DNA of 64,000 nucleotides from a virus, in the IMG/VR virus record IMGVR_UViG_3300018080_000158, positions 1-64,000 of that record; one strand, written 5' to 3'. Made by a program: the position numbers and the translations under genes. The first letter of the stretch is position 1, and each line of letters opens with the position of its first letter. The notes beneath the pieces are model-generated. The model was not told the origin of the DNA and did not search any database. It worked only from the letters and a program-made list of their open reading frames with translations. This document shows, piece after piece, positions 12,377-37,823 of the stretch.

Positions 12377-12889
12377 TTAAATGTACCCAATATGTCGCCA
12401 ATCCTCAAGGATTGCGACTGTCCTTCTGTCTACTGTATTTTTAATAGCGTTTCTTACATAGGATGTACCAGAGGGATCAGTTATCATTTTTGGGCCAGCG
12501 TATCCAACACCAGCATCGTTTTGATCAAAGACAGGATCTTGAGAAGAAAAACTTTTGCCAAATCGTAAAAGACGAATTGGTTTTTCTTTCTCCTTGCTTT
12601 TTACTTCAAATTTTAACTTTGGCAGTGGCTTGTCTCTGAAAAGAGCGTTGAGTATAGTTTGAATAGCTGTGTGGCAGGTATAGCAAAACCATAGATCGTT
12701 ACCGTCCGAAGTTCTATAAGAAAAACGATGAGCCAGGCAATCGCTCTCGTAATCTACAAACTCACCAGGATTGCAAATCTGTTTCCAATGACCCGTGCCC
12801 GTATATACCAATCCGCAGCAATTAGGATGCACATACTCCAGATAAAAGTTGCATTTCTTATTGAAGCAAAATGGAAGATTTTTACTCAC
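12377..12889 (-). CDS. Cys-rich hypothetical protein carrying an IRLLRF motif
   Basis: AAGGAG RBS; KPIRLLRF. Confidence 0.6.
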   Translation of the reverse strand: MSKNLPFCFNKKCNFYLEYVHPNCCGLVYTGTGHWKQICNPGEFVDYESDCLAHRFSYRTSDGNDLWFCYTCHTAIQTILNALFRDKPLPKLKFEVKSKEKEKPIRLLRFGKSFSSQDPVFDQNDAGVGYAGPKMITDPSGTSYVRNAIKNTVDRRTVAILEDWRHIGYI

Positions 12890-12940
12890 GGCTTCATCTC
12901 CTTAGCTGTTGAGTAATATACTAAGTCCTAATGCCAAGAT

Positions 12941-13408
12941 CTAAATGTCTCGCAGCAAGCCATTTCCTCTCCGTACTGATAGGAGGTGGCTCGCTTGGCT
13001 TCTGTAGGCAAATATTGGAGCCTTGCAGTCTTCGAGTATTTTAATGGCTTCAGGTCTTATTATCGGAAAGGAGCTATTGTCGTGAAAGAAAGCCTTCTCA
13101 GCCATGCCCCTAGATTTGATTTTCCCCTTCTCTATCAATTCCTCAACAGAGAACCTTTCAGCGTCTTGGTCCGAAACAATACATACACCTCTGGTGTGGA
13201 TGTGTGTCTCCAGGTCCACTGCAAAAGTGACGAATACTCTAGGGCGGTGTTTATCATCCTCATAGAAGTAATGAGCGTATCTTAAACGGCTTCTACACCA
13301 CTTAAGCCACCTATCATGTTCCTTCTTTTCCTTACGTTTACTCATTGATCTTTTACTCATCTTTATTGCTCCTTTCGCATAGTCGCTTAGTGGAGTGTAA
13401 TACTGCAC
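12941..13408 (-). CDS. hypothetical protein
   Basis: long ORF in the operon; real start probably MSKR. Confidence 0.55.
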   Translation of the reverse strand: MQYYTPLSDYAKGAIKMSKRSMSKRKEKKEHDRWLKWCRSRLRYAHYFYEDDKHRPRVFVTFAVDLETHIHTRGVCIVSDQDAERFSVEELIEKGKIKSRGMAEKAFFHDNSSFPIIRPEAIKILEDCKAPIFAYRSQASHLLSVRRGNGLLRDI

Positions 13409-13743
13409 AAATCGACCAGCTCACGTATACTACGTTTCACACCAACAGCATTCGGATCAACAAAAGAGTTCAATAACAAGTAGAATATCTTTGCTGCCTT
13501 TTCTGCTTCTTCAAGATTGGCTCCTTTAATAGAACAGTGTACCTTATCATCCGAGCCTATAAAAACAGTTTCCAGCCTGGCAGCTACGCCAAAGCCTAGC
13601 AGCACATCATTAAATAGGCTATTTCTTTGTGAGAGATCCAAATCAGGCTCGAAGCAAATAGTCCAAATCTTATTTTCGAGTTCCTTCTTTTTCTCCTCTT
13701 GACTCATATACTCTCTCCGATCTAAAGTGCAATTGCTACCCAA
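13387..13743 (-). CDS. hypothetical protein
   Basis: ORF in the operon. Confidence 0.5.
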   Translation of the reverse strand: MGSNCTLDRREYMSQEEKKKELENKIWTICFEPDLDLSQRNSLFNDVLLGFGVAARLETVFIGSDDKVHCSIKGANLEEAEKAAKIFYLLLNSFVDPNAVGVKRSIRELVDLCSITLH

Positions 13744-13999
13744 CTATTACTTATATGTCTTAACCAGATCGGGATTCGGGCATATAAACTCATTTTCTTC
13801 TAAACCCCAACGTGTTGATCCTTGATGGCGGTTTTTACCATTTAGTTCACCAGCGATAATTCTCGTACACCAACAAACCGCCGAATCGTCAACTATAGAC
13901 GGGTCAATAGCTTTGGCCTGCTTTCGCACCCACGCACAAGTGCGGCTTTTGCTTGCTTTTCTTCGTCCATTGCTTTACTAACGTTTACTAACGTGCAGT

Positions 14000-14194
14000 T
14001 TACTTACTTTTGTCAATGCGAAACCGCTGGTTATTTTTTAACACTAAATCCGCAATCTCACACGATTTTATTTCTGGTTCAAATGATTCATAACCAACAA
14101 GTTTAGCCAATATATTCATGCCCTCATAATATTCATTTGAGTGATGTAAAAGGAAAATCGCCCTCTTGATTAACTGCCGCTCTTTCTTAGTCAC
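14000..14194 (-). CDS. hypothetical protein
   Basis: AGGTG RBS; ORF in the operon. Confidence 0.5.
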   Translation of the reverse strand: MTKKERQLIKRAIFLLHHSNEYYEGMNILAKLVGYESFEPEIKSCEIADLVLKNNQRFRIDKSK

Positions 14195-14205
14195 AAGTCA
14201 CCTAA

Positions 14206-14859
14206 CTAAAATTTGATATGCCTGATTACTTTCTTATATCTGTTTGACACTTTCTCTGATTGTTTTTTTACTTTCTCACGCTTTCTGTTTGCTTCAAACA
14301 TTTGTACCATAGTCTGATTAGAAGAACGAGACGGCTTCGCACTGGCCAAAGAACGAAATCCCCAATCTGGGTAATTGCACATCGATCGTTCCCCAAAGAA
14401 TCTGAATATCTTTAAAGCTTCAGGACAGTGTAGGAAATGATCCGATAAACTTTCCCATAAATGCTGTATCCTTTTCTCTACAGAGTCTCTAAAAAATCTT
14501 AATTCTCTACCGTGCGGCGATTGTAGCAGATAGGCAAGACTTCTTGACTCGAACTGAACTCTCCATAACATACTACAAGCGGGACATGTGCATTGGAATA
14601 CTATTTGGTGGGTCAGAAAGGCATGATCATAAAAAACAGAGTACTCAACAGGAGCGCCCAGGGCTTTAAACTGATACGTACTAGGGCACTCGCTAAGGAT
14701 CATTTCCATAAACTTGCGAGGTTCTATATAACTAGCCATTGACAATCTTTCACTTTCTATTGCCCATACAATACTTTCATCCAAGGAACAAGCTTTTCTA
14801 AATCGCCATTCTTCCAAGTAGAAGGTCCTTTGAAGTAATCTGATTTTTCGTTCCAACAC
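14206..14859 (-). CDS. hypothetical protein ending in VIRHIKF
   Basis: long ORF, CTCPAC; true start probably downstream of the annotated one. Confidence 0.55.
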   Translation of the reverse strand: MLERKIRLLQRTFYLEEWRFRKACSLDESIVWAIESERLSMASYIEPRKFMEMILSECPSTYQFKALGAPVEYSVFYDHAFLTHQIVFQCTCPACSMLWRVQFESRSLAYLLQSPHGRELRFFRDSVEKRIQHLWESLSDHFLHCPEALKIFRFFGERSMCNYPDWGFRSLASAKPSRSSNQTMVQMFEANRKREKVKKQSEKVSNRYKKVIRHIKF

Positions 14860-36204: not shown

Positions 36205-36509
36205 TAGCCATCCTTTGACTCGAACAAAGGTTTTGGATCAAAATCAGCACAGAGTAATTGGTTCAAAAATAGTACTTCAAAATCAATCGCTTCATCTCTT
36301 CTATCAAAACCAACCTTGGTTATCAATCTGCGTGTTCCATCAGAGTGATTTAAGTATACTTTCCATTTGTTGGTCTTGGGATCGTATTCGACATTTGAGG
36401 CCCGTGTAACGGCCTTGTTCCCAGGAATGTCCCTCACAATACTATCATCATTATATAGAGTAATTATAGTACCGTCAGGCTCTATAACAAAGACTTGTTC
36501 CTTAATCAT
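36204..36509 (-). CDS. conserved protein accompanying DUF2997/DUF1257
   Basis: IEPDGTI..LY.D...RASNVE...W...GF.RR.EAI.FEV..LN. Confidence 0.65.
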   Translation of the reverse strand: MIKEQVFVIEPDGTIITLYNDDSIVRDIPGNKAVTRASNVEYDPKTNKWKVYLNHSDGTRRLITKVGFDRRDEAIDFEVLFLNQLLCADFDPKPLFESKDG

Positions 36510-36620
36510 CGCTACTCTCTCCTGTAGTAGTTAAAAGAAGAAGGGACGGCCCCTCAAAGCGTGGTTTGTGGCCAAGGCCGGGTAGGTCACAACTCGCTAA
36601 GAGGGACCTGTTAGTAATAT

Positions 36621-36827
36621 CTACCTAGTACCAAGACTCTGTCCAACATTGCTTACCTTGTAGTAATCAGGTTTCTTGCGAACATCTTTAACAACTCCGG
36701 CAAGAGTCTTTTGCATCTTTTCCCCTAGAGTTAAACACCCCTTACCGTTAAAGCCATGCCCCTCTATAGTAACATCAGATCCATCTGGGGAAATTACTAT
36801 TTCTAAAATCTTGGCTTTGCCAGCCAT
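36621..36827 (-). CDS. DUF2997-like protein
   Basis: IVISPDG.V.IEGHGF.GKGC...K.DYY. Confidence 0.8.
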   Translation of the reverse strand: MAGKAKILEIVISPDGSDVTIEGHGFNGKGCLTLGEKMQKTLAGVVKDVRKKPDYYKVSNVGQSLGTR

Positions 36828-36838
36828 ACCATCACCTC

Positions 36839-37213
36839 CTAATATCCTACGCAAGCTCTCAAAACGATCCTTCCGTCCTCTTGGACCTTCCGACCTGTAA
36901 TACTCATCCGATTGCTCCTAGCAAATTTGCGAATGGTCTCTTCAGCATAGCTGCGAGTAATTTCCTGGCCCCCTCTCAAGCGACGAAGGAGTGAACTGTC
37001 TGTGTCTCCCTCAAGACGAAAGCCTCCTTTATAGTGTACAAGACACGCAGTGCCACCCGCTGGGTCTCGAAGAGTATACTTCACATCATTGCCGGATCTG
37101 CTTCTTTTTGCCAGCTCTGTGTTCTCTTCCAAAGAGACACCGAGTTTTTCACAAGTAATTTTGAAACACTCCAAATCCTCAATCACTACTCCAGACTTCA
37201 TCCAAAAACTCAT
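36839..37213 (-). CDS. DUF1257 (Ycf35)-like protein
   Basis: MS.....IEDLE......LG...YA...DGRIVL pattern. Confidence 0.7.
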   Translation of the reverse strand: MSFWMKSGVVIEDLECFKITCEKLGVSLEENTELAKRSRSGNDVKYTLRDPAGGTACLVHYKGGFRLEGDTDSSLLRRLRGGQEITRSYAEETIRKFARSNRMSITGRKVQEDGRIVLRACVGY

Positions 37214-37259
37214 TTTGTTGTCCTCCTCTCTTTAAAGGTTAAATGTATTTACTGCTATT

Positions 37260-37823
37260 TCAAAAACGCAAGTATCTCATATTTAAACCAGGTGGAAGCC
37301 ATTTTTCTACGGTTACAAGCTTCTTAAGGGTTTCGACTGGAAGCATCTTTTGGTGTCGTAAGTAAGTCTGCGATAGCTGTGAGGCATGTAGTAAATCCAA
37401 AGCTTCTTCTTTTTTGAGAAATGAAAACTTACCCTTAAGATAGGCATTAGTTAAAGTGTGCGCTATACTATTGTTTGCATATCTATCTGGGAAAGCTACT
37501 CTGAAAGGTTTGATAGTAACAGTGGGATGTTTTTCTTTATCGACTACTCTCAAGTAGAATGAAAAAGAAATGTAAGGTGTATTTGGAGTTCTGTGTTGCA
37601 GAAACAGTTTTAAGTAGGGACATGGACTTATAAACCTACGGGAATCCCTTATACTATCGGCCAGATCTTCCTTTGATCGATAGACGAAATTTAAATTTAC
37701 TGCTTTGAAAAAAGGAATTTCCTGACCATTTTGAATTAGGAAGAGTAAAAACTTTTCATGACACTCACGCAGGCTGTTTCTATAAACGCCGCCATGGTAC
37801 TCAAAACTGTATTGTCTCTCCAT
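37260..37823 (-). CDS. hypothetical protein ending in MRYLRF
   Basis: start taken at MERQY after GGGGGTG; own promoter at 37860-37887. Confidence 0.6.
   Translation of the reverse strand: MERQYSFEYHGGVYRNSLRECHEKFLLFLIQNGQEIPFFKAVNLNFVYRSKEDLADSIRDSRRFISPCPYLKLFLQHRTPNTPYISFSFYLRVVDKEKHPTVTIKPFRVAFPDRYANNSIAHTLTNAYLKGKFSFLKKEEALDLLHASQLSQTYLRHQKMLPVETLKKLVTVEKWLPPGLNMRYLRF

Follow-up and report, generated by a model that had tools for sequence, protein, structure and literature searches.

The tag and its carriers in the window

The DNA analysed here (the window) comprises bases 1–64000 of a 79,579-bp uncultured phage record (IMG/VR record IMGVR_UViG_3300018080_000158), and nearly all of its genes lie on the minus strand. 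They include the genes for a large terminase (TerL, 18572–20671, minus strand, assigned by tblastn), a Cdc48/Ycf46-like AAA+ ATPase (23428–25047, minus strand) and a member of a conserved family of 160–200 residues (37260–37823, minus strand; hereafter the 37260 family), together with several small ORFans. These proteins carry the same short, Arg-centred hexapeptide, in most cases near the C-terminus. We refer to this peptide as the tag; most likely, it addresses its carriers to a single binding partner.

The strict form of the tag, [IM]-R-x-[LI]-[RK]-F, is matched six times in the window, each time inside a minus-strand open reading frame (ORF) and always in the coding frame; the plus strand has no match, nor does the 15.6 kb of the genome that lies outside the window. 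Every copy listed in a preliminary description of this DNA, made from the sequence alone, was recovered at its position, on the minus strand and within an ORF. IRLLRF occurs at 12560–12577 (residues 105–110 of 170 in the ORFan 12377–12889, in a basic linker), at 16937–16954 (in the tail of the 135-residue ORFan 16865–17272) and at 25721–25738 (10 residues from the end of the 92-residue ORFan 25688–25966). A second tag, PRLLRF (16877–16894), is found in the same tail of 16865–17272. IRHIKF (14209–14226) forms the very C-terminus of the 217-residue ORFan 14206–14859, as MRYLRF (37263–37280) does that of the 37260-family protein. TerL contains IRKLKF (18647–18664; residues 670–675 of 699, 24 residues from the end) and the ATPase a weaker form, TRLLKI (23446–23463; residues 529–534 of 539, five residues from the end). 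The copies had been described as lying mostly in C-terminal tails, which holds generally but not for 12377–12889, where the tag sits in an internal linker 60 residues before the C-terminus. The N-terminal half of this ORFan is Cys-rich and looks like a zinc-binding module; it is the sole carrier with an internal tag, placed between two protein parts.

The carriers resemble one another in nothing but the tag and its basic flanks, and two of the ORFans (16865–17272 and 12377–12889) match only themselves among 5.8 billion proteins. Residue shuffles, performed on whole proteins and within 15-residue windows, the latter keeping the composition of the charged tails, give an expected count for the strict pattern of 0.07–0.10 with a maximum of 2, against the six observed. 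A hexamer common to at least three proteins, as IRLLRF is here, arose in none of 400 whole-protein shuffles and in three of 400 local shuffles. The codons for Arg, Leu and Ile vary among the copies in the window, as codons also do among those of a relative described below (G002), and none of the direct DNA repeat families of the window overlaps a tag site. A translated DNA repeat is thus ruled out as the source of the tag, and the earlier remark that the IRLLRF copies differ in their codons, with conservation at the protein level, is confirmed. The helicase tail KRRVRY (29518–29535) was rejected as a tag, its orthologues keeping another pattern, and the internal matches PRTIRY (in 15434–15730), MRYVRF (in 25953–26876) and LRILKY (in 48080–49108) were excluded as probable chance. 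No tag is present in any tail of the structural or head-completion proteins of the window.

Conservation and genome-specific spelling in a phage clade

The tag is a feature of a clade of 80–100-kb uncultured phages, not of this genome alone. Relatives of TerL at 50–62% identity were found in viral and metagenome contigs, and a degenerate DNA pattern, made by hand for the 37260 family, yielded 11 more clade records. With the pattern fixed beforehand from the window, a 99.8-kb relative (G002) gives three tail matches against 0.04 expected, a number reached in none of 3000 shuffles; the matches lie 3–15 residues from the C-termini of unrelated small proteins and are spelt [VI]RTIRF. Tail tags in other clade genomes number five against 1.0 expected (G050; 0 of 400 shuffles), three against 0.2 (G043; likewise 0 of 400), three against 0.56 (G045) and two against 0.14 (G049). 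When non-redundant genomes are pooled, the fixed pattern falls in the last 30 residues of 28 of 948 clade proteins and of 4 of 1530 proteins from the non-clade phages fetched here (odds ratio 11.6, P = 1e-8). An unbiased test of tail k-mers suffered from the confounding effect of poly-Thr tails; after filtering for complexity, RTIRF alone among pentamers was common to three G002 tails, a result equalled in three of 1000 shuffles. Across the clade some 20 unrelated small proteins are tagged, the set differing from genome to genome, and recurrence on unrelated proteins is seen in at least eight genomes.

The 37260 family is the one whose tail is most conserved. An exhaustive HMMER search gave 79 family representatives, of which 55 have [VI]-R-x-[IV]-R-[IFM] at the end, usually preceded by '...LRKG'. 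In an alignment of 65 sequences only two columns are invariant, and the first Arg of the tag (Arg183) is one of them. Although the window protein shares 29% identity with its orthologue in G002, both have a tag at the end, as MRYLRF and as IRAIRI-GKGGGKK, respectively. The AlphaFold (AF2) model of the family [predicted local distance difference test score (pLDDT) 91] is β-rich with three helices; its last 14 residues, with a pLDDT of about 71, are modelled with neither helix nor strand, which fits an exposed extension. The model has no usable fold relative among solved structures (best Z-score 3.7). Foldseek matches it to a 201-residue protein of Pseudomonas phage SM1 [probability 1.0, template modelling (TM) score 0.54], which corresponds in length to gp027. 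A protein Atlas search gave sub-threshold leads only, the members P0004 and P0027 searched singly against viral contigs gave no match, and neither did tblastn of two family members against GenBank phages. This additional tag-ended family was seen only in the clade.

In TerL, homology to known large terminases stops at residue 634–648, and the remaining 50–65 residues, past the nuclease domain, form an Arg/Lys-rich tail. In each of the six complete TerLs of the clade, x-R-[KS]-hydrophobic-[RK]-hydrophobic stands 4–24 residues from the end, spelt IRKLKF, VRSVKI, VRKVRV, VRKIRV, VRKVRI or GRKLRI; the TerLs of L003, G003 and SM1, from outside the clade, have no tag in the tail. Conservation in orthologues, which the preliminary description had made a condition of its proposal, is thus seen in TerL and the 37260 family, and in the ATPase as described below. 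Some clade orthologues are far longer: a TerL of 1061 residues, an ATPase of 808 residues and a larger RecA-like gene were noted (G042 4629–7814; G045 16751–19177 and 21297–23300), possibly owing to inteins or insertions.

The spelling of the tag varies between genomes and does so in concert on non-orthologous carriers. Among 42 hand-curated tags, those on non-orthologous proteins share 3.17 of 6 identities within a genome and 2.53 of 6 between genomes, and none of 5000 label permutations reaches this difference; the within-genome likeness persists when only pairs of a small protein and a conserved carrier are compared. Tags of the window prefer Leu at position 4 and Phe at position 6, those of G002 Ile or Val, and in G042 TerL, the 37260-family member and three other proteins have K, S or G at position 1.

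Over the 42 curated tags the consensus is hydrophobic-R-x-hydrophobic-R/K-hydrophobic, often with Pro or Gly at the borders and usually with basic residues after it. Position 1 is V or I in 33 tags; all its occupants are V, I, K, M, T, P, L, G or S, and Gln is never found. Arg at position 2 is universal (42/42), as the search patterns demanded, and position 3 is variable. Position 4 is I, L or V in 41 tags, position 5 is R or K in 40 and position 6 is I, F, V or L in 35; β-branched Ile and Val predominate at positions 1 and 4. The median distance to the C-terminus is five residues, and 41 of the 42 tags lie no more than 25 residues from it.

The ATPase module and its gene neighbourhood

The ATPase belongs to the classical clade of AAA ATPases (PF00004, 1.7e-21; Cdc48 D2, 1.7e-42) and has a unique N-terminal region of about 245 residues. 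All seven clade ATPases, and that of L003, have a related element in the tail, a hydrophobic residue or Thr followed by R-x-hydrophobic and then mostly by a basic residue, 1–16 residues from the end. Two further genes, directly downstream of the 37260-family gene, encode receptor candidates: a DUF2997 protein (36621–36854, minus strand; 34.7 bits against a cut-off of 24.1) and a 124-residue protein (36839–37213, minus strand) that is at best weakly DUF1257-like. A search of the genome gave no match to DUF1257; one of nine orthologues of the 124-residue protein reaches DUF1257, with an E-value of 0.039, and a fold search with the protein gave no usable match (best Z-score 5.8 over 40 residues). 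The preliminary description had named DUF1257 and DUF2997 partners of the ATPase, of which DUF2997 is therefore present and DUF1257 was not detected. The proteins p311 and p334, which form a block with the ATPase, have no relatives among solved structures. Neither DUF3150 nor SWIM was found here; the DUF3150 search matched no control genome either and is uninformative.

A conserved order of PolA, portal, MuF, a few small genes, the 37260 family, the 124-residue gene and DUF2997 is found in 10 clade records. The 37260-family gene thus follows portal and MuF at a distance of a few genes in the whole clade and adjoins DUF2997, while the ATPase–p311–p334 block is set apart from the DUF2997 genes, near TerL. 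Phage SM1 has one gene block, with the ATPase (gp026) followed by gp027 and, three genes after gp027, the DUF2997 homologue gp030; SM1 itself is without the tag. The 37260 family was found in only one of 38 records searched; it is missing from the 36 other records with this ATPase, among them all 12 with a completeness of 90% or more. Two distant ATPase-bearing phages (G006 and G007) show no enrichment of the tag.

Outside the clade many ATPases end in R-x-hydrophobic-x-hydrophobic-COOH, and this terminal peptide recurs on operon neighbours, at a rate of 11 of 667 within genomes against 108 of 19585 across genomes. In L039 (11643–12781) the ATPase ends in VRAINLN and proteins adjacent to it in the operon in VRAVVLD and IRAVVLN; L048 (7940–9166) and L054 (2585–4988) provide further examples. 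The presence of the ATPase peptide on operon neighbours in unrelated phages makes a shared tail a general property of the ATPase module. The window tag is a local form of the tail that generally marks this module, and in the clade it has also spread to TerL, the additional family and many small proteins.

A second shared C-terminal tail, acidic in character, is found on p311 (22463–23398, adjoining the ATPase) and on a 250-residue protein (30889–31641, phrog_17226) encoded between helicase and primase. It reads [SD]-[IL]-D-[DA]-[LI]-L in nearly all clade genomes, is looser in G050 and is spelt LDALL on both window proteins, so that it too co-varies by genome. Both ends of p311 (22526–22685 and 23306–23405) contain 12-nt periodic repeats that encode Lys/Ala/Ser-rich low-complexity sequence. 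A palindrome, TACTTTCAGACGATTGAAAGTA, followed by a sigma70-like promoter (TTGACA ... TAT box), stands directly upstream of the ATPase gene (25085–25135), the 37260-family gene (37860–37929) and the gene 46119–46913 (46888–46965), and further copies of the palindrome are located at 880, 9980, 35868 and 60896. The shared palindrome and promoter element suggest that these genes head co-regulated operons.

The portal protein (41769–43523, minus strand) matches Pfam Phage_portal at 1.5e-6, below the curated cut-off, and annotated portals by tblastn; it is 45–51% identical across the clade. The TerL gene is 21 kb away from the portal and MuF genes, an unusual order that is kept across the clade, with portal and MuF located between the DNA polymerase and replication genes. 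The MuF-like head protein (39105–41756) has a C-terminal ADP-ribosyltransferase domain (PF03496, 1.8e-14), with a weak match to arginine ADP-ribosyltransferases, and ranges from 306 to 697 residues among relatives, which marks the cargo domain as variable. The family A DNA polymerase (43537–46113) is fused to an N-terminal domain of the uracil-DNA glycosylase superfamily (PF03167, 2.7e-22), and the same fusion is annotated for the polymerase of SM1.

A probable docking tail and its candidate receptors

These data support selection on the peptide at the protein level, and its behaviour is that of a docking motif. The proposal of a docking tag in the preliminary description is borne out by conservation in orthologues and by the enrichment over composition-matched shuffles in the window, G002 and other clade genomes; none of the three outcomes that it gave as refutations was observed, and the model of the 37260 family, whose tail has neither helix nor strand, fits an exposed motif. 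Terminase tails that serve in docking have a precedent (PMC5290284). The tag has two general properties of a short linear motif, recurring on non-homologous proteins beyond chance and being conserved in orthologues. We consider it likely that the carriers share a C-terminal docking tail, spelt in this clade as the hexapeptide, for one co-evolving phage-encoded receptor. The tail would be a short, exposed peptide that fits a single site of one protein encoded by the phage; TerL, the ATPase with its weaker form, the 37260 family and the genome-specific small proteins would all be brought to, or compete for, this partner, and the receptor would co-evolve with the tail. A spelling that is genome-specific and common to non-orthologous carriers argues for such a receptor: a single receptor that co-evolves with the tail should make unrelated carriers change in concert, which is not expected of binding to DNA or membrane. 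From this we infer peptide-in-groove docking to a single receptor.

Several points weigh against this reading. The small carriers are predicted ORFs, and the copy in 12377–12889 is in a linker, not a tail. The tag list was curated by the analyst, and the position 1 variants of G042 were admitted only after they had been seen. The ATPase form of the tail usually has a polar last position, the hydrophobic residue being missing, and may differ functionally. Lastly, the clade shares a common ancestry, and the tags of TerL, the ATPase and the 37260 family are not independent events; the independent evidence is the set of about 20 non-orthologous small carriers.

As to the identity of the receptor, a partner within the ATPase module (the 124-residue protein, DUF2997, p311 or p334) is our tentative choice, because tails are shared at operon level in other phages. 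That the ATPase is itself tagged in every clade genome makes it more likely a fellow client than the hub that had at first been proposed, a role that also agrees poorly with the absence of the 37260 family from 36 other ATPase phages. Since TerL carries the tag, the portal vertex may instead be the receptor, although we regard this as somewhat unlikely; the N-terminal region of the ATPase is a doubtful candidate, and the remaining probability goes to something else.

Docking at the portal vertex would have the terminase tail bind the procapsid portal, with the ATPase hexamer and other carriers using the same site before, after or in competition with it. This possibility draws on the tags that all six clade TerLs carry beyond the nuclease domain, and on phage P22, where TerL without residues 483–499 fails to bind the procapsid portal (PMC5290284). 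The deleted conserved stretch includes I-R-P-V-R-R, which as written follows the same pattern as the tag, and the TerL tails of T3 and lambda are reported to act as that of P22 does (PMC5290284). Moreover, adaptor proteins place C-terminal tails with a final Phe in the clefts of the portal clip, where the fit is both hydrophobic and electrostatic (PMC12407722), and the 37260 family is encoded a few genes past portal and MuF clade-wide. Elsewhere, however, the shared tail tracks the ATPase operon and not the head genes, none of the structural or head-completion proteins of the window is tagged, and the small carriers resemble accessory proteins, not virion parts. The P22, T3 and lambda tails are like the tail of the clade TerLs in being basic, past the nuclease domain and at the extreme C-terminus; there the tail is known on the terminase only, whereas here it is also on the ATPase, a conserved family and many small proteins, and its role at the portal is a candidate one. 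In a more elaborate and quite improbable scheme, the Cdc48-like hexamer and the terminase pentamer would dock in turn at the same portal-vertex site through the shared tail, the small tagged proteins sharing the address. If so, the unfoldase would thread accessory proteins into the procapsid before DNA packaging, or clear the portal, and phage heads would have an AAA+ motor-driven route of protein loading.

Doubtful as an alternative is a degron or recognition tag that would bind the N-terminal region of the ATPase, with the ATPase then unfolding or remodelling the carriers. The ATPase domain is of the Cdc48/p97 D2 type, an unfoldase module, and is preceded by the unique region of about 245 residues; the tags are in terminal tails that are probably exposed, as degrons are, and the ATPase and the operon of the 37260 family share the upstream palindrome and promoter-like element. 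Set against this, the ATPase is itself tagged in every clade genome, the tag-ended family is missing in the 36 other ATPase phages, tag enrichment is lacking in G006 and G007, the packaging motor would be an odd substrate for degradation and no partner protease is evident.

A non-specific basic arm for nucleic acid or membrane, acting with no protein receptor, is very unlikely. The flanks are Lys/Arg-rich, TerL works on DNA and the mix of basic and hydrophobic residues resembles membrane-targeting helices such as the C-terminus of MinD, but neither the exact identity of hexamers within a genome nor their concerted change between genomes is expected for binding to DNA or lipid; in addition, with six residues, often between Pro or Gly, the core is too short to form an amphipathic helix, and β-branched residues dominate positions 1 and 4. 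Chance or a compositional artefact of basic low-complexity tails can be dismissed almost entirely: the tails are compositionally biased and the loosest patterns expect one or two matches per genome, but local shuffles that keep composition always stay below the observed counts, independent genomes give the same result and the tag Arg is invariant in the family alignment.

Short terminal peptides that bring many unrelated proteins to one hub are familiar from the sliding-clamp-binding motif QL[SD]LF and the acidic C-terminal tip of single-stranded DNA-binding protein (SSB). The tag differs from both in being basic and Arg-centred; it does not follow the Q-L-[SD]-L-F consensus, with Gln never at position 1, and no clamp gene was identified in this phage. 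The T4-type capsid targeting sequence is an N-terminal leader cut off by the prohead protease, whereas nearly all of the tags are C-terminal. Another likeness is to docking tails of proteasome activators, to which the GQYL tail of Mpa/Bpa is also kindred. Hydrophobic-tyrosine-X (HbYX) tails occur on PAN/Rpt, archaeal Cdc48 and AMA and plug into the same pockets of one ring-shaped partner (PMC3493965, PMC11475706). There too, unrelated proteins including a Cdc48-type AAA+ ring share a short C-terminal peptide. Unlike HbYX, the tag is basic and has a penultimate Tyr in none of 42 cases; it usually lies 0–25 residues from the end, where HbYX is the last three residues, and a terminase is among its carriers. 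No 20S-type peptidase was noticed among the annotated window proteins, though no search was aimed at it. The gene set itself recalls the Ycf46, Ycf35 (DUF1257) and DUF2997 set of cyanobacteria, plastids and phages, since a Cdc48-like ATPase and DUF2997 are present here too; the module is contiguous in SM1 and split in this clade, DUF1257 was not confirmed here and the additional tag-ended family is found only here.

Our literature search gave no paper describing a tag of this kind, nor any on Ycf46 or DUF2997 in phages. To our knowledge nothing comparable has been published for tailed phages, in which one tail would connect the terminase that packages DNA, a Cdc48-like ATPase and accessory proteins that vary between genomes. 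New in this work are the family ending in the tag (37260), the series of tags on TerL and the ATPase across the clade, the split-module synteny and the formal test of co-variation. Shared terminal docking peptides organise major cellular hubs, among them the proteasome, sliding clamps and SSB. In these phages the tag offers an experimental handle on a widespread, little-studied ATPase module, with the peptide usable as bait for the receptor and the genome-specific spellings as natural controls for specificity swaps. It is likewise a handle on the recognition of terminase tails, and on small phage proteins without detectable relatives, all of which would act at the same place.

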